From a virus: a stretch of DNA of 40,039 nucleotides. Below the pieces are notes generated by a model that worked only from the letters and a program-made list of their open reading frames with translations, searched no databases and was not told the origin of the DNA. The DNA lies in IMG/VR virus record IMGVR_UViG_3300045988_148545. The stretch is one strand, 5' to 3'. Position numbers and translations under genes: made by a program. This document shows, piece after piece, positions 1 through 39,964 of the stretch (positions are counted from its first letter, which is position 1; each line of letters starts with the position of its first letter).

Positions 1-99
1 ATGAAAGCTAAGTATCTATTATAATAAAGAAGAAACTAAGTATAAAAGGGGGCTAAAATAGTCCCCTTTATGTTAATGATATAGTTAAACTACGAGTTC
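1..99. repeat. Direct terminal repeat, copy 1 (exact duplicate of 39941..40039); overlap signature of a circular/circularly permuted genome
   Basis: Read directly: nt 1-99 are identical to the last 99 nt. Nt 1-24 (MKAKYLL*) are the 3' end of the endolysin ORF that starts at 39305. Confidence 0.97.
45..69. terminator. Hairpin between convergent endolysin (+) and integrase (-); possible bidirectional terminator
   Basis: AAAGGGGGC-N7-GTCCCCTTT forms a 9-bp stem with one G.T pair, flanked by A/T runs. It lies downstream of both stop codons. A duplicate copy sits at 39985..40009. Confidence 0.5.
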
Positions 100-122
100 G
101 TTGGTGCTTCGACTATATCATT
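75..122. other. Candidate attP for the serine integrase (48-bp imperfect inverted repeat)
   Basis: Perfect 11-bp arms AATGATATAGT (75-85) and ACTATATCATT (112-122). Further symmetric matches occur at pairs 88/109, 89/108, 92/105, 93/104 and 95/102. The symmetry centre lies between 98 and 99 (T98 C99, non-palindromic). The site overlaps the integrase stop codon. Confidence 0.45.
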
Positions 123-1704
123 CGCTAGAATCCCCTTTGTTCTTGGGCAGTTTCGGGAATAGCTCTAGCTTAAAATCATCTTGTCTTTGGTCTTTGAAGT
201 GTCCGTTGGCAGTTTTGGTATACACAACCTTATCCAGAATAGACTTCATTAAGTCATTTTTTAATTGAACATCATCAGAAGTTTTATAGATTTCCAAAAT
301 CTTTTTAGCCTTTGGTATAATCTCTTCCTGATGGCTAATTATTTCTCTCTCATTTGCTATTTCTTTATTAAGCTTAACAATTGCTTTCTCTGTAGAAGAA
401 ATGCTTTCAGAAACAGTTTTTTGTCGGTTCAGAAAAGTATCACTATCATATATTCCGTTTTCATAAGCTTCAAATACTTTTGTTAACTGGTTTTTGTATG
501 TTATTAATTGCTTTTGCTGTTCTTCCAAGAGTTTTGCCTTGGATTCCAAAACAGAAGTGTCATACTTGTTTGCTTCTTCCTTTATTTCGTATCCATCAAT
601 CCATTCCTTAATGGCAGTTAACAAAGCATCTTCAACAAGGTAAAAAGCAGAAGACACATTATGACATGTTTTTTCAGAGCATATTAGTGAAGCGGACTGA
701 CCTCTTTTTTGGTAAGGTCTTCTATACATACTTCTTCCACACATACCACATTTTATTACACCGGCAAGTGGATTGGTTATCGTTTTTGAAGGTCTTCTTG
801 GATTTCTGGATAATCTTTCCTGGGCCAAATTAAATGTGTCCTGAGATACAAGAGCAGGATGCTTTCCTTTGTATAGTCCATAGGATTCGTTACGTGTCCA
901 TTTATCGACGATAATTCCGTTTTCAACAACCTTTTTTCGCTTCTTTTTCCCAAAAACAATATATCCTAAATAATGTTCGTTTCTAAGCATGGTAGATATT
1001 GTTGGAATGGTCCAAACACCACCTAAGGGTTTAATTGAATATTCAGAATTTAACTTGTCTGCAATACGAGCTGTCCCTAAAAGTTCATAACTGCCATCTT
1101 CTTTTAGAATTCCCTTTGTATACCATTGAAAAATCAACTTTACAATTTCTGCTTCTCCCGGCTTAGGTTCCAGCCTATAACCTTTGGATTTTTTGTTCTT
1201 TACAATGGAATATCCAAATGGTGGTGTATGATGTATGTAATTACCTTCCTTGCAACTTGCTTCCATTCCAGCATGCAATCTTCTTTTAATAGTCTTATAT
1301 TCTCTTCTTGACATATACAAGCCAAATTCAAAATATTCCTGATCAAATTCATCTGTGGGATTAAATGTTTTCATCGGGGTAATGATTAAGGTATTGGAAT
1401 AAGTAAACGTCTTGGTAACTATTCCCTGATCAGAAGTATCACCACGGGCAAGACGCTCGATTTCCATAACAAGAACACCCTCCCATTTCCCATCAGATAC
1501 ATCATTGAGTAATCTCTGCATTTGAGGTCTTGCAGCAATGCTATCACCGGAAACAACCTCTTCATAGATTTCACCAATTGGCAAATTTTTCTTTTTTGCT
1601 AATTCAATTAATGTATCTCTATGACGTTTTAATGTTTCTCCAAAACCTTGCAGTTCTAACTCTCTATCAGCTCTGGATTTTCTTAAATAAATACAATAAG
1701 CCAT
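118..1704 (-). CDS. int: Large serine recombinase (phage integrase)
   Basis: 528 aa. N-terminal resolvase-type catalytic domain (YLRKSRAD with catalytic Ser, VMEIERLARGD), recombinase domain, Cys zinc ribbon (CGMCGRS...CSEKTCHN) and C-terminal coiled coil. SD AAAGGAG precedes the ATG. Confidence 0.95.
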   Translation of the reverse strand: MAYCIYLRKSRADRELELQGFGETLKRHRDTLIELAKKKNLPIGEIYEEVVSGDSIAARPQMQRLLNDVSDGKWEGVLVMEIERLARGDTSDQGIVTKTFTYSNTLIITPMKTFNPTDEFDQEYFEFGLYMSRREYKTIKRRLHAGMEASCKEGNYIHHTPPFGYSIVKNKKSKGYRLEPKPGEAEIVKLIFQWYTKGILKEDGSYELLGTARIADKLNSEYSIKPLGGVWTIPTISTMLRNEHYLGYIVFGKKKRKKVVENGIIVDKWTRNESYGLYKGKHPALVSQDTFNLAQERLSRNPRRPSKTITNPLAGVIKCGMCGRSMYRRPYQKRGQSASLICSEKTCHNVSSAFYLVEDALLTAIKEWIDGYEIKEEANKYDTSVLESKAKLLEEQQKQLITYKNQLTKVFEAYENGIYDSDTFLNRQKTVSESISSTEKAIVKLNKEIANEREIISHQEEIIPKAKKILEIYKTSDDVQLKNDLMKSILDKVVYTKTANGHFKDQRQDDFKLELFPKLPKNKGDSSE

Positions 1705-1766
1705 AGTATATCACTCCTTTATATTTGATTTTATTAAAAAATGGGTACAAAAATAACACCCAGCCT

Positions 1767-1795
1767 TTGCCAGATGTTCCATTATGTGATACAAT
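1767..1795 (+). promoter_or_regulatory. Sigma-70-like promoter (TTGCCA-17 nt-TACAAT, with TGn extension) pointing away from int
   Basis: -35 TTGCCA at 1767-1772, 17-nt spacer, TGaTACAAT at 1787-1795. No plus-strand ORF follows, only a terminator-like hairpin at 1828-1856. Confidence 0.4.
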
Positions 1796-1824
1796 ATGAC
1801 TTGTCTAGGGTGATATTGTATCAC
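1786..1824. repeat. 12-bp perfect inverted repeat GTGATACAATAT / ATATTGTATCAC with a 15-bp spacer
   Basis: Read directly in the intergenic gap between the SHOCT gene and int. Each arm contains a TGATACAAT extended -10-like element, one per strand. Confidence 0.9.
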
Positions 1825-1827
1825 TTG

Positions 1828-1856
1828 GAGCTGGTCCTTAGTGGCTGGCTCTTTTT
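1828..1856 (+). terminator. Plus-strand intrinsic-terminator-like hairpin
   Basis: GAGCTGGTC/GGCTGGCTC forms 9 pairs, 3 of them G.U, so it folds well only in plus-strand RNA. It is followed by TTTTT. Confidence 0.4.
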
Positions 1857-1866
1857 ATTTAAAATG

Positions 1867-2607
1867 TTATAGTTCGAGTAATTGTTTTTTCTTTAAATCA
1901 AATTCTGCTTGTGTGATGATTCCATCATCTAGTAAATTTTTGAATTTTCTTAGTTCATCAGCTGACGATAATTGTATATCTTTTTCAGAACTATTCGTTG
2001 ATTCAATCATTAAATCAAATTCAGCCATAATATTTTGAGCATTTGCCTGTGCGGTTTTAAAAATAATGCTATTAGATTTAGTGGAAGTAACAGTCAAAAA
2101 ATTTATAAGAATTTTAGGGAAAAATTCATTTTTTGTAACAACATTCAATGCATATTCCTTAATTTCGGTAACAACTTTTTTCTTCCCAGTAAGACCACCA
2201 ACAACAGCACCAACACCGCCAAAAAGAATCCCACCAGCAACAGCTCTACCAACACCACCTTTAGTTATTGATTCACCATCCTGGATTAACTCATAAGAAA
2301 CAACGTCATTAAAATTAAAAACAATATTTGATGTTCCATACATCCACAATTTGTGATTAGCATCAACTGAAAGCATTTTTTTGAAAGTTTTGGTTGGAGT
2401 AAAAATTTCAAGAAGCTCTTTGTTTTTTTCTGATTTAGATATGGCCATTCTAATTTCATCTGTTTTGTAATTTTTCCAAGACATTGTAATGATATATGGA
2501 TAGCATTTGGAAATACAATCTTTACAAATATAACCATCTGCTAAACTTTTCTTTGATTCATTACAATTACATACAGTACAAGTAGTACGTTTACTAAATA
2601 ATCCCAT
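1867..2607 (-). CDS. Zinc-ribbon / glycine-zipper / SHOCT-domain protein (lysogeny-operon accessory gene, function unknown)
   Basis: 246 aa. N-terminal CxxC...CxxC (CTVCNC...CKDCISKC). Central glycine zipper GGVGRAVAGGILFGGVGAVVGGLTG. C-terminal SHOCT-like motif ELRKFKNLLDDGIITQAEFDLKKKQLL. The start lies 12 nt after the immA-like stop. Confidence 0.8.
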   Translation of the reverse strand: MGLFSKRTTCTVCNCNESKKSLADGYICKDCISKCYPYIITMSWKNYKTDEIRMAISKSEKNKELLEIFTPTKTFKKMLSVDANHKLWMYGTSNIVFNFNDVVSYELIQDGESITKGGVGRAVAGGILFGGVGAVVGGLTGKKKVVTEIKEYALNVVTKNEFFPKILINFLTVTSTKSNSIIFKTAQANAQNIMAEFDLMIESTNSSEKDIQLSSADELRKFKNLLDDGIITQAEFDLKKKQLLEL

Positions 2608-2619
2608 AGAAACCTCCTT

Positions 2620-3096
2620 CTAATCATTTATATTTTTAATCACACCAACTGAATTATATCCAAACTCAATGATGTAATTTTTGTGTTTTATGTAGCAACC
2701 ATATTTATGCATATAAGCATTTATGGTGTCTGTCAGAAACTGCTCTGTTACGTTTAAGAATTCAGCAGTCTCATAAAAATTAGTGCAGTGGTTCTCATAA
2801 GCTGCAATAATGCTGTCTAGATTAATCAATTTCTGATACCCCCAAATCCTTGCTCTATGCTCCTGTTGGCGATTGGATGCAGAACTCATAGTTAATATAT
2901 TTCCATTAGAAGTATGATGATGTCCCATTTCTTCTGCCAAAACACAACGTTTCTGTGTAGAGTTTTCCAAACTATCACTTATACCAACAACACCGTCACA
3001 ATACAACCCTTTGATATTTGGGCTGTCAAAAGAATAATCTACAACTTTTATACCATCCTCGCAGGCTTCTGATTCTAATTGTTCTAACTGGTTCAA
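2620..3096 (-). CDS. ImmA/IrrE-family (DUF955-like) metallopeptidase, putative anti-repressor protease
   Basis: 158 aa, directly downstream of the XRE repressor as in ImmR/ImmA pairs. The motif region is LAEEMGHHH, i.e. EEMGH in place of canonical HExxH. Confidence 0.7.
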   Translation of the reverse strand: MNQLEQLESEACEDGIKVVDYSFDSPNIKGLYCDGVVGISDSLENSTQKRCVLAEEMGHHHTSNGNILTMSSASNRQQEHRARIWGYQKLINLDSIIAAYENHCTNFYETAEFLNVTEQFLTDTINAYMHKYGCYIKHKNYIIEFGYNSVGVIKNIND

Positions 3097-3147
3097 GAAA
3101 TCACCTCCCCACTAGAGTATACTTTTTAAGGTGTCCCATAAAAAGGA

Positions 3148-3465
3148 CTACTTTCTTTTATTCTTTACAAATTCAACGAAGTTTTTAATTTCTTCCATTT
3201 CTGCTTCTGAAAATTCCTCACCCTCAAAGTGTGCTGCAAGAGTGTTGACTTCTGGGAAAGGATTTGATGGTTTTCCCATTAAAAAATTCATATCAACGTT
3301 AAAAAAATCAGCAATAGTTTCTAAGGTTTCAAAATCAGGTTCTCTGTTTCCATTTTCGTACATACTAACAGTACTTTTTGAAATATCTAGCTTTTTAGCC
3401 AATTCCTGTTGAGTTAACCCTTCTCTTTTGCGTAAATATTTTAGCATATCAGAAAAATTATTCAT
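3148..3465 (-). CDS. XRE-family HTH repressor (CI/ImmR-like)
   Basis: I chose internal ATG 3465 (MNNFSDMLKYLRKREGLTQQELAKKLDISKSTVSMYENG...) because AGGAGGTC sits 5 nt upstream. The N-terminal extension in the ORF track is hydrophobic and implausible. Confidence 0.88.
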   Translation of the reverse strand: MNNFSDMLKYLRKREGLTQQELAKKLDISKSTVSMYENGNREPDFETLETIADFFNVDMNFLMGKPSNPFPEVNTLAAHFEGEEFSEAEMEEIKNFVEFVKNKRK

Positions 3466-3496
3466 AAGAAGACCTCCTTTTTTATATCTTAATATA

Positions 3497-3524
3497 AGTA
3501 TACACGAAATGTGAAAAAAAACAA
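3497..3524 (-). promoter_or_regulatory. Possible repressor-maintenance promoter (minus strand TTGTTT-16-TATACT)
   Basis: Reverse complement of 3519-3524 is the -35 element and of 3497-3502 is the -10 element. It overlaps a degenerate operator-like site, ATACACGAAATGTGAAA (3500-3516). Confidence 0.35.
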
Positions 3525-3545
3525 CAAAAAAATCACAAAAAGTGG

Positions 3546-3574
3546 TTGACATAGGTACACAAAACGTGTACAAT
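3546..3574 (+). promoter_or_regulatory. Early (lytic) promoter TTGACA-17 nt-TACAAT
   Basis: Consensus -35 at 3546-3551, exact 17-nt spacer, -10 at 3569-3574. It is divergent from the repressor gene. Confidence 0.65.
3555..3571. promoter_or_regulatory. Operator candidate: perfect palindrome GTACAC-N5-GTGTAC inside the early-promoter spacer
   Basis: Read directly. It occupies the spacer between the -35 and -10 elements. Related half-sites (ACAC-N5-GTG/CGT) occur at 3500-3516, 4077-4093 and 4110-4123. Confidence 0.55.
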
Positions 3575-3612
3575 ATAAGAGTAGCAAGGAGATGCAGGAA
3601 AGGAGAAAAGAA

Positions 3613-18109: not shown

Positions 18110-19549
18110 GTGAAACAAGTGGATTTAGTTAGAATGAAGGAATTATTAAGTCAGTATATGCCGGGGCATGCAATGTATATGGTTAGATGTGACATTGCTG
18201 ACAGATATTATAAAAATCAGAGTGACATACTTTATGGAGAAGAAAAAAAGGATGAAGAAGGTCATCCACTAAGAAATGCAGATAACAGAATACCACGCAA
18301 CTTTCACGGACTGATGGTTAACCAGAAAGCAGCTTATGCATTTACTACACCGCCTACTTTTGATATTGGTAATTCAAAGGCTAATTCAGAAATATTAAAG
18401 TCATTGGGAGATGAATATAGAAAAGAGTGTATGGAGCTTTGCGTTAATGCAGCCAATGCAGGTGTTGCATGGATTCATTATTGGACCAATGAGTTTAATG
18501 ATTTTGAGTGGGCAGTTATTAATAGCAAACAGATTGTTCCGATATGGAATAAGTCAGCAAAACAGAAACTGATAGGAGCATTAAGAGTATATACTCAGAT
18601 AGATGAAACAGATGGAAAAAATTACACAATTTATGAATATTGGAACAAAGAGGAATGTCAGGTATACAGAAGACTTCAATCAGATTTAAATTATGATAAC
18701 TTAACAGATTATGCAATGTTTGAAAACCCGACAACAGGTGAACTTGTAAATGAGTACAGACACGGAATGGAGGAAATACCTTTCATTCCGTTTTTTAATA
18801 ACAACATTAAGTCTTCTGACCTTGATAACATTAAGCCTTTGATTGATGTGTACGACAAGGTGTTTAGTGGCTTTATTAATGACCTTGAAGATGTTCAGGA
18901 GCTTATATTTGTTCTTTCCGGATATGGTGGAACAGATTTAAATGGATTCTTGCAGGATTTGAAGAAATACAAGGTTATAAAAATGGATTCAGATGAAGGT
19001 GCAGGTGTAAGCACTCTTAACATTGAGATTCCTATTGAAGCAAGAAACAGTGTTCTTGATGCCACAAGAAAGGCTATTTTCGAACAGGGGCAGGGATTTG
19101 ATCCAAGACCAGAGAATTTTGGTAATCAGTCAGGAGAGGCTCTTAAGTTTATGTATTCATTGTTGGAAATGAAAACAGGTTTAATGGAAACAGAGTTTCA
19201 GTTGGGCTTTGCAAAGCTGGTAAGAGCAATCTGCAACTTTAAGAACATTAAGTGTGACAACATTGTTCAGACATGGACAAGAACCTGTATTAAGAATGAG
19301 CAGGAGCAGGCAGCCATATGCAAGGACAGTGTTGGAATCATTAGCCAGAAAACTATACTTAAGAATCATCCGTTTGTTGAGGATGTGGAAGCAGAGCTTA
19401 AACAGATTCAGAAGGAAAATGAAGAAAAGGCACAGAATTCTGACGTATATCAACAGATGTTTGCTAAACAGCCAAATGGAGATGGAAATAATGGTGATGA
19501 TTCGACTAAAGAGGGCGATAACTCAGTAGGTGGAGCAAATGAAGAATAG
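18110..19549 (+). CDS. Portal protein (SPP1 gp6-like)
   Basis: 479 aa, positioned after terL. Pattern NADNRIPRNFHGLMVNQKAAY and an acidic C terminus. GTG 18119 may be the true start because its SD spacing is better. Confidence 0.88.
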   Translation: MKQVDLVRMKELLSQYMPGHAMYMVRCDIADRYYKNQSDILYGEEKKDEEGHPLRNADNRIPRNFHGLMVNQKAAYAFTTPPTFDIGNSKANSEILKSLGDEYRKECMELCVNAANAGVAWIHYWTNEFNDFEWAVINSKQIVPIWNKSAKQKLIGALRVYTQIDETDGKNYTIYEYWNKEECQVYRRLQSDLNYDNLTDYAMFENPTTGELVNEYRHGMEEIPFIPFFNNNIKSSDLDNIKPLIDVYDKVFSGFINDLEDVQELIFVLSGYGGTDLNGFLQDLKKYKVIKMDSDEGAGVSTLNIEIPIEARNSVLDATRKAIFEQGQGFDPRPENFGNQSGEALKFMYSLLEMKTGLMETEFQLGFAKLVRAICNFKNIKCDNIVQTWTRTCIKNEQEQAAICKDSVGIISQKTILKNHPFVEDVEAELKQIQKENEEKAQNSDVYQQMFAKQPNGDGNNGDDSTKEGDNSVGGANEE

Positions 19550-20960
19550 CGAATATTGGACGAAAAGATTTGTTGAAATGGAAGAAGCAACACATCAGAC
19601 TTCCGTAAAGAAGACAATGGATATTCAGGAGCAGTTTGATAAGTCTCAGAAGATAATTGAAGAAAAGATAAATGCCTGGTATCAGAGGTATGCGGATAAC
19701 AATAATATGTCTCTGTTGGAAGCAAGAAAGTCCCTTAATGATAAGGAATTAAAGGAACTTAAGTGGGATGTAGAGGAATACATAAAAAAGGGCAGGGAAA
19801 ACGCTTTTTCAGGTGAATGGGTAAAGGAACTTGAAAATGCATCTGCCAAGGCTCACATAAGCAGGCTTGAAGCGTTGGAGTTACAGTGTAGACAACAGGC
19901 AGAAGTAGCATTTGGTAATTTGAACGACGAAGTAAGCAAACACATAAAAGACGTATATAAGGAAAGTTATTACAGAACAGCTTATGAAATTCAAAAAGGC
20001 GTTGGTGTCGGCTCGAACTTTGCAGCATTAAATGACAGATTAATTGAAAAAGTGGTAAGTAAGCCTTGGTTAGCTGATGGCAAGAATTTCAGTGACAGAA
20101 TATGGGGCAACAAGACACAGCTTATAAATCAGTTACATACAAGTTTAAGCCAGATGTGTATTACAGGTGCAGGACCAGACAAGGCAATAAGCCAGATTGC
20201 AAGCAAAATGAATGTAAGCAAGGCTAATGCCGGAAGACTTGTAATGACTGAATCGGCGTATTTTAGTTCAACAGCTCAAAAGGAATGCTTTAAGGAGTTG
20301 GATGTTGAAAGATATGAGATTGTAGCCACATTGGACGGTCATACATCAGACATCTGCCAGGAAATGGATGGAAAAGTATTCAAGATGAGTGAATATGAAG
20401 AGGGTGTAACAGCTCCGCCATTTCACGTTAACTGTAGAAGTTGTACAGCACCTTATTTTGATGATGAATTTGCAAAAGGTGAGAGAATTGCAAGAGATGA
20501 AGATGGTAATAACTACTATGTTCCTGCAGATATGACCTATCCTGAATGGAAAAAATCATTTGTTGATGGTCAGACAGATGATTTGAAAGAAACTAAGACA
20601 GATGATACAATATCATTAAAGAATAAAATTTCTGAACAGGATAACAGGATTGATGAATTGAAAAATCAATTTAGTGATGCTACAGATGGTTATTCTTATG
20701 ATGAATGGTTTTCTGAATTTTCTTCAATCGAAGAAGGTTATGGTGATGCATCTGATGGTGATGCAACGTTTACCAAACTTAAAAATCTTGATGAAGAAAT
20801 TAGGAATGCTGAAAAGCAACGTTCAGATTTATTACTGCAAAAGGAATCGCGTGGTCAGTTAGACACTGGTTTTCCAGGAAAAGTACCTAATGATAAACTT
20901 GATGAATATAATGCAAAAGCCTTTGAACAAATTAAGGTTGATACAGGATATTCAGAATAA
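19539..20960 (+). CDS. Head morphogenesis protein (Mu F / SPP1 gp7 family)
   Basis: NFSDRIWGN..., TLDGHTSDICQEMDGKVF and PPFHVNCRSCTAPY are MuF-domain hallmarks. ATG 19539 sits 5 nt after AGGTGGA. The ORF ends at TAA 20958-20960, in frame with the next ORF. Confidence 0.9.
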   Translation: MKNSEYWTKRFVEMEEATHQTSVKKTMDIQEQFDKSQKIIEEKINAWYQRYADNNNMSLLEARKSLNDKELKELKWDVEEYIKKGRENAFSGEWVKELENASAKAHISRLEALELQCRQQAEVAFGNLNDEVSKHIKDVYKESYYRTAYEIQKGVGVGSNFAALNDRLIEKVVSKPWLADGKNFSDRIWGNKTQLINQLHTSLSQMCITGAGPDKAISQIASKMNVSKANAGRLVMTESAYFSSTAQKECFKELDVERYEIVATLDGHTSDICQEMDGKVFKMSEYEEGVTAPPFHVNCRSCTAPYFDDEFAKGERIARDEDGNNYYVPADMTYPEWKKSFVDGQTDDLKETKTDDTISLKNKISEQDNRIDELKNQFSDATDGYSYDEWFSEFSSIEEGYGDASDGDATFTKLKNLDEEIRNAEKQRSDLLLQKESRGQLDTGFPGKVPNDKLDEYNAKAFEQIKVDTGYSE

Positions 20961-20984
20961 CAGGCAACAGAATTTCATAGTGCT

Positions 20985-21509
20985 TTGAAAGAATACTTTG
21001 GCGGTGATTATGCTTCAATTCTTGCAGGTGAAGGTTCAACTGCTAAAACTATACGCGACGGACTTGACAGAATGCCGGTATATGATGGTACGGTTTACCG
21101 TGGTTTGTGCTTTTCTGAAAGTTCAGATTATGATATTTCAGAATTTACACGTTTGAAACCGGGTGATAAAATACCATCAAAGGGTATAATATCCAGTTGG
21201 TCAAGTGATAAAAGAGTTGCAGAAGCATTTGGCGCAGCATCTACACAAGCCGTCGAATCCAGTACAGTCATTCTTGAATGTTTAGAAAATAAAACTGGTG
21301 TTGGTGTTCAGCATATTTCAAGTTATGGTAGTAGAGAAGCGGAAGTATTGTGTGGTTCAAAATATGAAGTGCTTGAAATTGTTACAGAAAGCAAGTATGA
21401 CTATGTTTCAAGACGAAAAGATTTATTATATTTCTCGGATGATCTAACCGAATGGGAAGACGAATTAAAAAAACAAGTGGTGTGTGTAATTAAGGTAAAA
21501 GAGGTATAG
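20985..21509 (+). CDS. ADP-ribosyltransferase toxin-like domain protein (R-S-ExE class)
   Basis: Arg in VYRGL, S-x-S in ISSWSS, E-x-E in REAEVL. It is in the same frame as the MuF ORF and open from 20961. TTG start with no SD, so it may be made by readthrough or reinitiation. Confidence 0.78.
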   Translation: MKEYFGGDYASILAGEGSTAKTIRDGLDRMPVYDGTVYRGLCFSESSDYDISEFTRLKPGDKIPSKGIISSWSSDKRVAEAFGAASTQAVESSTVILECLENKTGVGVQHISSYGSREAEVLCGSKYEVLEIVTESKYDYVSRRKDLLYFSDDLTEWEDELKKQVVCVIKVKEV

Positions 21510-21513
21510 GCTT

Positions 21514-21696
21514 ATGTTAGAACATAATAAATACAATGATAGATTAGTTCGTGAACATAGAGAACTTTTAAAAAAGGCAAGAGAAACCGCTGATGAAAAA
21601 GAAAAAGCACGTATTCTTAGATTAGCGGAACAGAAGCACAATGAAATGCTTGTCGCAGAATTTGATGATAAAAATTTCAAAAGATTTAATCAGTAA
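21514..21696 (+). CDS. Small charged helical protein (60 aa); candidate immunity/regulator for the ART domain
   Basis: ATG sits 8 nt after AAAGAGGT and 4 nt after the ART stop. A strong terminator follows. Confidence 0.6.
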   Translation: MLEHNKYNDRLVREHRELLKKARETADEKEKARILRLAEQKHNEMLVAEFDDKNFKRFNQ

Positions 21697-21697
21697 G

Positions 21698-21721
21698 AAG
21701 CACCTGAAAGGGGTGCTTTTT
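21698..21721 (+). terminator. Rho-independent terminator
   Basis: AAGCACCT-gaaag-GGGTGCTT stem with a 3' T-run. Confidence 0.8.
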
Positions 21722-21781
21722 CAGTGTGTTAAAACATCAGACTTGCTGAAAGAACAGCAAAAATAAACTGAAAGGACAAAT

Positions 21782-21973
21782 ATGTACAAAGAAGAAATAC
21801 TGGAGCAGATTACAAGATGCAGGGAAATGCAGAGTAAATGTAGAATTGATGACATTGATACTTTTATTAGACTTAGTAACAGAATAGAAGAACTTTCAAG
21901 TAAAATTAGCAATGCTGGAAGTCAATCAGTTGTCCCAGTGCAATATTCTGAAAAAAGACCTGAAATGTTTTGA
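21782..21973 (+). CDS. Hypothetical protein (63 aa) in a terminator-bounded mini-cassette
   Basis: ATG preceded by AAAGGA. Lies between the terminators at 21698-21721 and 21993-22021. Confidence 0.5.
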   Translation: MYKEEILEQITRCREMQSKCRIDDIDTFIRLSNRIEELSSKISNAGSQSVVPVQYSEKRPEMF

Positions 21974-23785: not shown

Positions 23786-24691
23786 ATGGCAGTAAAAACA
23801 GTACAGGTTGTAATTAACGGACAAACCCATACTCTGACATATAATGCCACAACTAAGAAGTATGAGGCTACAATAACAGCTCCGTCAACATCATCATACA
23901 ATCAGAATGGACATTATTATAATGTTAAGGTTAAGGCTACTGATGAAGCTGGAAACAGTGTGACAAAGGATGCAACGGACACAACACTTGGTTCAAGCTT
24001 ACAGCTTAAGGTTAAGGAAAAGGTTGCACCTGTTATTTCAATAACAGCACCTTCATCTTCTGCTAAGTTGACTAATAACAAGCCTGTTATTAACTGGACT
24101 GTTACAGATGCAGATTCAGGTGTTAATCCATCAACAATTAAGCTTATTATTGATAGCCAGACTATTACAACAGGAATTACTAAGACACAGTCAGGAAAGA
24201 ATTATACATGTAGTTATACACCAACTACAGCTTTGTCAGATGAAACTCACACAATTAAGGTATCCGCAAGTGATTATGATGGTAATGTTGCAACTCAGAA
24301 GAGTGTAACATTTACTGTTGACACTGTTCCACCTGAATTGTCAGTATCAGCACCGGTTGACAATCTTGTTACAAATCAGTCATCTCTTGTTGTTAAGGGT
24401 ACTACTAATGATGTTACAAGCTCACCGGTAACTCTTACTATTAAGCTTAATGGTGGATCTGAACAGACTGTTGAAGTTGGAAGTGATGGAAGCTTTACAA
24501 AGACACTTACATTAGTGACAGGAGAAAACACCATTGTCATTACGGCAAAGGATGGAGCAGGAAAGACATCTACAGTTACAAAGAAGGTTGTACTTGACCA
24601 GACTGCACCGGTTATTCAGTCAGTTACTATTTTACCAAATCCGGTTAATGCCGGCGCAACATATACAATTTCTGTGGAGGTTACAGACTAA
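23786..24691 (+). CDS. Ig-like (Big) repeat protein, possible capsid decoration/adhesion protein
   Basis: 301 aa. Three or four beta-rich, Thr/Ser/Val-rich modules, each with a D-x-A/D-G-N/K motif (TDEAGNS, SDYDGNV, KDGAGKT). SD AAGGAGGG. Confidence 0.75.
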   Translation: MAVKTVQVVINGQTHTLTYNATTKKYEATITAPSTSSYNQNGHYYNVKVKATDEAGNSVTKDATDTTLGSSLQLKVKEKVAPVISITAPSSSAKLTNNKPVINWTVTDADSGVNPSTIKLIIDSQTITTGITKTQSGKNYTCSYTPTTALSDETHTIKVSASDYDGNVATQKSVTFTVDTVPPELSVSAPVDNLVTNQSSLVVKGTTNDVTSSPVTLTIKLNGGSEQTVEVGSDGSFTKTLTLVTGENTIVITAKDGAGKTSTVTKKVVLDQTAPVIQSVTILPNPVNAGATYTISVEVTD

Positions 24692-25060
24692 ATGGTAGTA
24701 AGGCTTATTGGTAAAGTGGAAGGTCAGGATGTTATCTTTACGAGAGTAAGGGGAGACATTTGGACCGCCGAGGTACCGGCACAAAAGAATGGAAGGTATG
24801 TAATGGAACTTACTGCATTTGATGAAGCCGGAAACATAGCATATTGTACTGATGTTTTGTTTTCTTATGATGCAACGGCAATGAAATTTACCATTGAGCC
24901 ATTACCATACCAATGTACATACATTAATGATGATTATGAAATTGGTTTTGTAACGTCAGAATATGACATTGAAAAGGAAAATGATAATTATTTTTCTGAA
25001 TTGTCAGAAAGCAGTTTTTGTATAGAACTATTAAGAAGAGGTGATGCGTGTGAACATTAA
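24692..25060 (+). CDS. Ig-like-domain protein (122 aa), paralogous module to the preceding gene
   Basis: Carries the same FDEAGN motif. TAAATG stop/start junction with the previous gene. Confidence 0.6.
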   Translation: MVVRLIGKVEGQDVIFTRVRGDIWTAEVPAQKNGRYVMELTAFDEAGNIAYCTDVLFSYDATAMKFTIEPLPYQCTYINDDYEIGFVTSEYDIEKENDNYFSELSESSFCIELLRRGDACEH

Positions 25061-39103: not shown

Positions 39104-39305
39104 CAAGACAAAGAGATGGATTAAGGCAGCAGGTGTCAGAGCTGTAAAAACAATGGCACAGACAGCAGTATCATTAATTACTGTTGGAAATTTAATCACA
39201 GAGCTTGATTGGGTTTCAATAATTGGAATTTCTGCAACAGCAGGAGTGGTTAGTATATTAACAAGTGTTGCAGGATTGCCGGAAGTGGAAAGTGAGGAAG
39301 AATAA
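39096..39305 (+). CDS. Holin (two-TM class)
   Basis: 69 aa. RWIKAAGVRAVKTMAQTAVSLITVG...LDWVSIIGISATAGVVSILTSVAGLPE with a charged C-terminal tail. It lies immediately upstream of the endolysin. Confidence 0.8.
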   Translation: MSDKTKRWIKAAGVRAVKTMAQTAVSLITVGNLITELDWVSIIGISATAGVVSILTSVAGLPEVESEEE

Positions 39306-39964
39306 TGAAGAAAGAACACGATATTAGAATTGACAGAACCAAGTTACATCCTTGGCTTAATTACAAGTTAACTTTACTTTTAAAGCAGTGTGCAAAGAAA
39401 GGGATATACCTTATTATTACGCAGGGATTTAGAAGCAAGGCAGAGCAGGACGCTTTGTATGCTCAGGGCAGAACAAAGAAAGGAAACATTGTAACCAATG
39501 CAAAGGGAAGCGATTATTCTAGTCAGCATCAGTGGGGCATTGCTTTTGACATTGCTTTGAAGTATGATGTAGACGGAGACGGAAGAATCACTGATGACAC
39601 ATATAACAACAAAGGCATAAAAAAAGTTGCTAAAATTGCCAAATCTAAGAAAGTAGGTCTTGCCTGGGGTGGTGACTGGGTTAGCCCTGTAGATACTCCA
39701 CATTTTTATCTTGAAAAGTGGGGAGATACTCCGGCTAAGTTGAAAAGAACTTACGGAACGTTTGAAAAGTTCAAAAAGACTTGGACTAAGGAAGTTTTTG
39801 GAACAAAAAAAGGACTAAACATTTGGAACAAAACAAGAACAAAAATCCTGAAGAAAAAGCTTCCGAATAAAACAAAGGTCAATGTAATGTATGTTAAAAA
39901 AGGATATGCAAAAGTTGAGTATAATGGTGTAGTTGGATATATGAAAGCTAAGTATCTATTATAA
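39305..39964 (+). CDS. Endolysin: peptidase M15 (VanY/L-Ala-D-Glu peptidase-like) catalytic domain + C-terminal SH3-like wall-binding domain
   Basis: ITQGFRSKAEQDALYAQGRT, SQHQWGIAFDI and GGDWVSPVDTPHF are M15 zinc-peptidase motifs. The C-terminal segment KVNVMYVKKGYAKVEYNGVVGYMKAKYL is SH3-like. The last 24 nt lie in the terminal repeat. Confidence 0.9.
   Translation: MKKEHDIRIDRTKLHPWLNYKLTLLLKQCAKKGIYLIITQGFRSKAEQDALYAQGRTKKGNIVTNAKGSDYSSQHQWGIAFDIALKYDVDGDGRITDDTYNNKGIKKVAKIAKSKKVGLAWGGDWVSPVDTPHFYLEKWGDTPAKLKRTYGTFEKFKKTWTKEVFGTKKGLNIWNKTRTKILKKKLPNKTKVNVMYVKKGYAKVEYNGVVGYMKAKYLL

Follow-up and report, generated by a model that had tools for sequence, protein, structure and literature searches.

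In the viral record IMGVR_UViG_3300045988_148545 (JGI/IMG), an open reading frame (ORF) for a MuF/SPP1-gp7-type minor head protein ends at a TAA codon, and the same frame then continues into the coding sequence for a predicted ADP-ribosyltransferase (ART) toxin domain. The whole stretch of 40,039 nt is referred to here as the window, and all positions are those of the whole stretch. The locus raises the question of what the single in-frame stop represents. A first-pass annotation of this DNA had proposed a readthrough or reinitiation device that sets the ratio of MuF to MuF-ART. However, alignment to related loci shows the stop to be, as far as DNA sequence can tell, a derived, lineage-specific one-base nonsense mutation of a MuF-ART fusion gene. 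The features of the locus are as follows:

19539..20960, + strand: ORF for a truncated minor head protein of the MuF/SPP1-gp7 type, 473 aa from ATG 19539, with GTG 19530 as an alternative start
20958..20960, + strand: TAA nonsense codon at codon 474, which is GAA (Glu) in the closest relatives, a single G->T change
20961..21509, + strand: cut-off 3' part of the gene with a predicted R-S-ExE ART domain, 182 codons (549 nt), ending at TAG 21507-21509
21514..21696, + strand: 60-aa ORF for a candidate immunity/antidote protein, 4 nt after the ART TAG, with GAGGT upstream
~21694..21722, + strand: intrinsic-terminator-like hairpin, stem AAGCACC/GGUGCUU followed by UUUUU

The arrangement itself had been described correctly in the first-pass annotation. 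The codons at 20961-20984 (QATEFHSA) and the 174-aa ORF that was called mechanically from TTG 20985 are in frame with the MuF ORF, and one stop codon is the sole interruption. In relatives (loci and proteins are identified here by L and P numbers, respectively), the interruption is missing. L012, which is from a different sample and shares 96-98 % nucleotide identity with the window, has GAA at the stop position, and this G/T difference is the sole mismatch in the 1054 nt between 20707 and 21760. GAA is also found in L001, an 89 % identical relative in which the surrounding context is identical. The 473-aa and 174-aa products of the window belong to one 90 %-identity cluster (290 members), the representative of which is a continuous 657-aa protein. 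All seven full-length members of this cluster (644-657 aa; P0017, P0018, P0019, P0022, P0025, P0027 and P0028) have Glu474 (GYSE-E-QATEF), and they differ from the conceptual readthrough product at 6-32 aa overall, with 0-1 of the differences downstream of the stop. P0018 is WP_347994710.1, recorded as 'minor capsid protein [uncultured Eubacterium sp.]', and P0019 was found on 14 contigs.

The same holds at greater distances. In approximately 25 loci from IMG/VR and GTDB, with ART identities of 36-77 %, MuF and ART are encoded in a single ORF of 546-670 aa, whereas in the window TAA 20958-60 excludes the toxin domain from the MuF polypeptide. As the gene is continuous in relatives, the same-frame adjacency of MuF and ART is explained by homology, and the view that they are parts of one MuF polymorphic toxin was borne out. 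The check for conservation of the stop that the first-pass annotation had suggested went the other way, with a sense codon in the closest strains and at 33 of the 36 loci aligned (E in 9, A in 9, G in 8 and K in 7). TAA is present only in the window, L011 and L050. L011 and L050 are the same 26,729-bp ENA contig, from HMP sample SAMN00037000, and L011 has 2 differences from the window in 18,199 positions. The exact 473-aa product was found on only 4 contigs, the longest being the 40,039-bp JGI/IMG contig.

The window very probably carries a recent nonsense allele, in a toxin-null and probably viable phage with a functional short MuF, a silenced ART and a 60-aa ORF that is still expressed. This reading builds on what was observed directly, namely the architecture of the locus, the homology and fold of the ART part, the derived stop and the synteny of the small ORF. 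The normal gene would encode a 657-aa MuF polymorphic toxin in which a helical linker joins an N-terminal, portal-associated MuF/gp7 head protein to the R-S-ExE ART at the C-terminus, with the 60-aa ORF following. By analogy to gp7, the EFV toxin and T4 Alt (PMC3000352, PMC5576092), intact MuF-ART would enter the head at the portal in a few copies and be ejected with the DNA. The ejected ART would then ADP-ribosylate a target in the host, with arginine predicted from the ExE motif, and the 60-aa protein would shield the producing or lysogenic cell. In the lineage of the window, a single G->T change would have turned the GAA for Glu474 into TAA, and translation would halt after the 473-aa MuF, which would keep the whole head-morphogenesis part. 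The ART-coding 549 nt, without a ribosome-binding site (RBS) or an ATG, would be essentially untranslated, the ART part of the TAA allele presumably being silent, and the 60-aa ORF, which has its own Shine-Dalgarno (SD) sequence, would stay expressed. Because no further downstream change has accumulated, the mutation appears to be very recent.

The position of the stop relative to the domains is also informative. It lies inside a segment, N-x-KA...I...DTGYS-x-[stop position]-x-A..F...L.EYFGGDY, that is shared by every homologue, and this segment is kept even in standalone ARTs at 32-38 % identity. In an AlphaFold2 model of the homologue P0001 (mean pLDDT 75), the stop-equivalent residue 96 is placed between helices H73-91 and H95-110, in the first turn of the second helix (pLDDT 67-86 over 71-110). 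On this alignment, the stop cuts into a conserved segment of the ART module and is not at a domain boundary. The start of every full-length standalone homologue (221-315 aa), in each case its own ATG, is 45 aa or more to the N-terminal side of the stop-equivalent position. Initiation at TTG 20985 would therefore give a product from which a conserved part of the module is missing.

Signals for translation of the ART part were looked for with a simple scan for an AGGAGG-like motif, and none precedes TTG 20985 or ATG 21072, the first ATG in this frame. An SD match of 4-7 nt is found for most of the other long ORFs on the + strand of the window, and the statement in the first-pass annotation that the ART part, unlike most genes here, is without an ATG and an SD sequence therefore agrees with the scan. 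The TTG-20985 ORF thus has neither its own start and RBS nor the complete N-terminal helical segment of a standalone ART. No tRNA genes were found in the window, and so there is no suppressor tRNA, and an Rfam scan did not detect an RNA element at the stop junction. The sequence flanking the TAA is identical to that of the GAA alleles, and hence no dedicated readthrough-promoting signal has evolved. In short, the stop has neither the conservation nor the dedicated context or suppressor tRNA of a recoding site. An alternative genetic code or a suppressor tRNA was ruled out, as all three stop codons (TAA, TAG and TGA) terminate ordinary ORFs and the window does not contain a second split gene.

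Several points weigh against the interpretation as a recent nonsense allele. All of the TAA-bearing contigs may stem from one biological sample (HMP SAMN00037000), and low-level readthrough or reinitiation may escape an analysis of sequence. Packaging and injection of the intact fusion are taken from analogy, and we infer the role of the 60-aa protein in immunity. The TAA could also be a sequencing or assembly error, in which case the true codon would be GAA and the gene would encode an intact 656-aa MuF-ART fusion. The difference from close relatives is indeed a single base, the coverage of the ENA contig is approximately 7.9x (according to the contig name), and the TAA contigs may share one HMP sample. 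However, at least two assemblies have this TAA, namely the 40,039-bp JGI/IMG contig and the 26,729-bp SPAdes-type contig, with 2 differences in 18.2 kb, and consensus substitution errors are rare in short-read assemblies. We consider a consensus error at the stop to be improbable.

If TAA 20958 were programmed or selected to be leaky, a few copies of MuF-ART would be packaged and injected and the stop would set the ratio of MuF to MuF-ART. In favour of this, a single stop separates the in-frame MuF and ART, the coding sequence 3' of it is intact, and the TAA is followed by C, which for UAA in Escherichia coli is the weakest context for termination. However, the intact downstream sequence is accounted for by the recency of the mutation, the stop is absent from the relatives examined, including the 96-98 % identical L012, and its flanks, which are those of the GAA alleles, do not include a dedicated signal. 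UAA is the least leaky of the bacterial stop codons, and background readthrough of UAA in bacteria is approximately 1e-3 or less. As there are only 1-2 copies of gp7 per capsid (PMC5576092), such a background would put the fusion into fewer than approximately one virion in several hundred, and almost no virions would be loaded. With a stop that is not conserved, is not at a domain boundary and is without a recoding signal, the ratio-setting device of the first-pass annotation did not hold up, and we regard it as very unlikely. A wider proposal, in which rare MuF-ART arising by readthrough at UAA-C or by reinitiation would be a selected, attenuated toxin and the 60-aa protein would represent a new ART-immunity family kept in remnants to protect lysogens, seems to us similarly doubtful. 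Termination-reinitiation at TTG 20985, 25 nt after the TAA, could instead make the 174-aa product an independent toxin, an ART that is free in the cytoplasm and is counteracted by the 60-aa protein. Standalone ARTs of this family exist (L003, L008 and L035-L049), and TTG 20985 is near the stop. However, neither TTG 20985 nor ATG 21072 is preceded by an SD sequence, and the 174-aa product would lack the NxKA...DTGYS helix that is present in every full-length standalone homologue. The 174-aa ORF is also confined to the TAA lineage. The 174-aa ORF called on L012, which has GAA, is an artefact of an upstream scaffold gap (N-run), and P0005 (174 aa, in L010) was called, on a short contig, from a Met inside an open frame that extends further upstream. 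An independent gene is extremely unlikely.

The MuF ORF matched Pfam PF04233 (Phage_Mu_F) over residues 198-301 (E=5.6e-14) and PHROG 115 'minor head protein' (E=1e-133), and TIGR01641 was matched by the full-length relative P0019. These matches and the end of the ORF at TAA 20958-20960 all agree with its earlier description as MuF/SPP1-gp7-type. An SPP1-type portal gene is found immediately 5' of MuF, with the terminase genes before the portal gene, and the N-terminal MuF domain thus lies beside the portal in the head module, as is characteristic of MuF polymorphic toxins. In the 657-aa MuF-ART protein of relatives, its counterpart is residues 1-474. A short MuF variant of 362 aa (P0029) is a member of the same 90 %-identity cluster, which indicates that the C-terminal extension of MuF is dispensable for head function, and the 473-aa MuF should therefore support morphogenesis. 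The window also differs from its cluster relatives at 20470-20480 (MuF residues ~312-315), where it has DDEFAKGERIARD and they have DDEFTKDEQRIARD, a 1-codon deletion and two substitutions. This deletion accounts for the length of the conceptual fusion, 656 aa in place of 657 aa.

For the part downstream of the stop, the catalytic residues of an ART were assigned to R47 in VYRGL, S79/S82 in ISSWSS and E126/E128 in REAEVL. These align with the R, S-x-S and ARTT-loop E-x-E motifs of the Vis toxin (4xzj), with S-W-S in place of S-T-S. In an alignment of 12 homologues, S79, S82, E126 and E128 are the same in all sequences and R47 in nearly all. The triad had been noted in the first-pass annotation, as had the need for a search of profiles and structures, and both were upheld. 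A single-sequence search of the PDB with the ART part found Vis 4xzj (E=3.4e-4), with YRG, S-x-S and EAEV aligned, and a profile of the 12 homologues found Vis at 1.3e-12 and the type VI secretion system (T6SS) effector Tre1 (6dre) at 4.9e-7. An AlphaFold2 model of the ART part (pLDDT 85, pTM 0.80) had 29 Foldseek matches in the PDB at E<=1e-3. All 29 are ARTs, with Vis the best listed at 7e-7, and they include SpvB, VIP2, C2-I, VahC, Tre1, ExoS/T, CDTa and C3larvin. The homology and the modelled fold support classification of this part as an R-S-E mono-ADP-ribosyltransferase (cholera-toxin group, C2/C3/Vis-like). It is acidic (pI 4.8) and is predicted to catalyse NAD+-dependent ADP-ribosylation, with arginine as the target expected from the ExE motif.

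No significant family was found for the ART part in Pfam, NCBIfam or PADLOC, and its identity was therefore taken from the PDB profile search and the fold. The Pfam model ADPrib_exo_Tox was below threshold for the window protein, weak for a distant homologue (E=0.0046) and clear for the portal-ART protein P0114 (1.3e-12). Only three distant matches were found by tblastn of the ART. An exhaustive profile search with the ART recovered 1841 50 %-identity clusters at E<=1e-3, including 78 at E<=1e-30. Ten long members were scanned for their carrier domains, and the ART is at the C-terminus of MuF1 (PF04233) in P0054, P0055 and P0057, of MuF2 (PF06152) in P0056 and P0063, and of portal proteins (PF06381) in P0080 and P0114. 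The ART family is thus characteristically joined to portal-associated head proteins. The MuF carrier in P0057 (838 aa) contains an intein, and the carriers in P0080 (873 aa) and P0114 (1424 aa) are Phage_portal_3 proteins. This subfamily, with its 1841 clusters and its presence on MuF1, MuF2 and portal proteins, is outside Pfam and NCBIfam and is annotated only as 'minor capsid protein'.

The 60-aa protein is basic (pI 9.1), and its composition is rich in helix-favouring residues. Homologues that are 30-61 % identical to it are encoded directly 3' of the ART stop in at least 18 loci, with a gap of 2-5 nt or an overlap of up to approximately 30 nt. The placement of the 60-aa ORF 4 nt after the ART, with an SD sequence, and the presence of a small ORF in this position were both as the first-pass annotation had expected. 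Across related loci, the identity of the small ORF declines along with that of the ART, and is 58-61 % where the ART identity is 77 %, 37-44 % where it is 55 %, and 30 % where it is 46 %. The exact 60-aa sequence is that of Eubacterium ventriosum WP_215715884.1, and at least 1000 contigs encode it. A word-indexed search gave near-identical sequences only, and the wider distribution was obtained with a hidden Markov model run over the ORFs downstream of ART genes. A small downstream ORF (<150 aa) is a feature of MuF polymorphic toxins, and the pairing of the ART with the 60-aa ORF is, on this synteny, the pattern expected for the toxin/immunity pairs of polymorphic toxin systems. As the small ORF accompanies the ART, also in orphan cassettes, it is a plausible immunity gene. 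Of the family searches that had been suggested, the one for the ART was thus positive, and the one for 21514-21696 was negative, with no family in Pfam, NCBIfam or PADLOC.

Folding revealed the hairpin that follows the 60-aa ORF (minimum free energy -15.3 kcal/mol, z = -3.1 with 200 shuffles), and a consensus terminator scan missed it at 21698-21721. The folding and the U-run agree with the earlier description of a terminator that closes the unit made up of MuF, ART and the small ORF, although the consensus scan did not list it. The hairpin sits inside the late structural operon, before the scaffold and capsid genes, which implies that the head genes beyond it are transcribed by antitermination or from a promoter of their own.

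The type of system to which the gene belongs is already known, and the window holds a disrupted allele of a MuF-ART that is not annotated in Pfam. MuF polymorphic toxins of temperate phages have been described by Jamet et al. (2017, BMC Biol 15:75; PMC5576092), and ART domains made up 14 % of the 191 MuF toxins in that study. The locus shares with these an N-terminal MuF beside the portal, a temperate Firmicutes phage, a variable C-terminal toxin and a small ORF (<150 aa) downstream. It is also like them in that closely related phages differ in their C-termini, here the 362-aa P0029 and the 657-aa MuF-ART. It is unlike them in that the toxin is cut off by a lineage-specific nonsense codon, and in that neither the ART nor the 60-aa ORF has a Pfam or NCBIfam model. 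The first-pass annotation had stated, with reference to Jamet et al., that the toxin domains are either fused or encoded separately. Standalone homologues do exist, with their own ATG and a longer N-terminus, but the word 'separate' does not occur in PMC5576092.

Another MuF protein with a C-terminal ExE ART is the EFV toxin of an Enterococcus faecalis V583 prophage (UniProt Q838U8; Fieldhouse et al. 2010, PMC3000352), which is toxic in yeast via the ExE glutamates and was proposed to travel through the conduit formed on phage infection (PMC3000352). Compared by its description, EFV (487 aa, C2-like) differs from the intact protein, which is 657 aa, has a longer helical linker and is nearest to Vis. 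The R / S-x-S / E-x-E arrangement is shared with Vis of Vibrio splendidus (4xzj) and with Tre1, a Serratia T6SS effector (6dre/6drh), and these were the best profile and fold matches. However, Vis is secreted as a standalone protein and Tre1 is a PAAR-linked T6SS effector, whereas the ART of this locus is carried by a phage head protein, and its identity to them is only 12-20 %. The immunity protein for Tre1, Tri1, is a large ADP-ribosylhydrolase-type protein, whereas the adjoining ORF in the window encodes a 60-aa protein. Delivery of a capsid-carried ART with the DNA recalls T4 Alt (PMC3000352, PMC5576092). However, T4 is a virulent phage and its Alt protein is not fused to MuF, and the likeness is one of concept. 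Finally, the 5'-truncated MuF C-terminus, ART and small ORF found in some relatives resemble the orphan toxin-immunity cassettes of CDI/Rhs systems (Zhang et al. 2012, PMC3482391). These cassettes are a feature of L001, L002, L004-L006, L010 and L040, where they are outside the head module or in remnants, and not of the window.

An apparent recoding device is thus better described as a one-base nonsense allele of a MuF-ART toxin gene that is widespread in gut phages. The TAA and GAA alleles, in nearly isogenic phages, are a natural pair with which to probe the role of a head-delivered ART in a temperate phage. The 60-aa companion, which is on at least 1000 contigs and moves with the ART into orphan cassettes and remnants, is a testable candidate for an immunity family.

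Outside this locus, the window looks like a complete temperate contractile-tailed phage (myophage) or prophage of approximately 40 kb. After the block of genes on the - strand, the order is replication genes, TerS/TerL, portal, MuF, scaffold, capsid and contractile tail (sheath, tube). The features that bear on the lifestyle or mark the right end are:

118-1704, - strand: serine recombinase (integrase), a temperate marker
within 1-3600, - strand: SHOCT protein, ImmA/IrrE peptidase and HTH_3 repressor, the latter two being temperate markers
39305-39964: M15 endolysin, at the right end of the window

MuF toxins are confined to temperate phages (PMC5576092), and the window, with its serine recombinase, ImmA/IrrE and HTH_3 genes, fits this restriction; an identical small ORF is also found on bacterial contigs of up to 2.1 Mb. 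The host is probably E. ventriosum or a related member of the Lachnospiraceae, as the exact 60-aa sequence is that of WP_215715884.1 from E. ventriosum. A megablast search of the region against 50,697 GenBank phages had zero matches. Directly 3' of the major capsid gene are two genes for proteins that probably decorate the capsid, the first of 301 aa with Ig-like domains (Big_7, Big_13 and Glucodextran_B; 23786-24691) and the second of 122 aa with Big_3_4 (24692-25060). The terminator is separated from the scaffold gene by a 63-aa ORF with an SD sequence (21782-21973), which was also called in L011, L012 and L050 and did not match a family in Pfam, PHROGs or PADLOC.

Several relatives of the module are not in intact phages. 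L001:5500-7000 (ERZ13688985 opera_contig_111627, 204.7 kb; P0020 and P0023) is a prophage remnant in a bacterial contig. Beside lysis genes, it retains only the C-terminal half of MuF along with the ART and the 60-aa ORF. A remnant of this type may be kept for the small ORF, as immunity against relatives that carry the ART. Forms of MuF-ART truncated at the 5' end were found on contigs of up to 199 kb (447 aa on 12 contigs and 434 aa on 3). Cassettes with a truncated MuF C-terminus, the ART and the small ORF are present in L002, L010 and L040. In L004:5500-6542, the MuF C-terminus, ART and a 59-aa ORF follow tail genes and HicAB, and a frameshift splits the MuF remnant from the ART. L006:2774-3645 has an orphan MuF C-terminus, ART and 59-aa ORF after HicB genes, outside the head module, and its frame is likewise shifted. 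The same ART/small-ORF pair is found in L005:114-1060, on a short contig without the HicAB context. L002:2517-4880 (Logan ERR12330640_17451) encodes a 278-aa MuF C-terminus and ART ORF and the 60-aa ORF. A 450-aa ORF (no Pfam match on record) that follows the small-terminase gene there, in the place of the large terminase, overlaps the 278-aa ORF, and the portal, MuF N-terminus and capsid genes are absent from the locus. L002 is either a deletion derivative or a misassembly.

The standalone ARTs of L035-L037 and L043-L049 (e.g. L044:3836-4875) are distant homologues of 220-300 aa (32-38 % identical). Each overlaps, by ATGA, the start of a conserved downstream ORF of approximately 115 aa (...DPDFLYDGDY...ITFLLRQMR.EY.PY.C...) that has no Pfam family. 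This ORF may represent a second immunity family, for the standalone ART clade. In L008:95-2600 and L009, a standalone 247-aa ART is found in a row of small ORFs with a gene for PF15644 Gln_amidase, a glutamine deamidase toxin domain, which suggests a multi-toxin cassette region.

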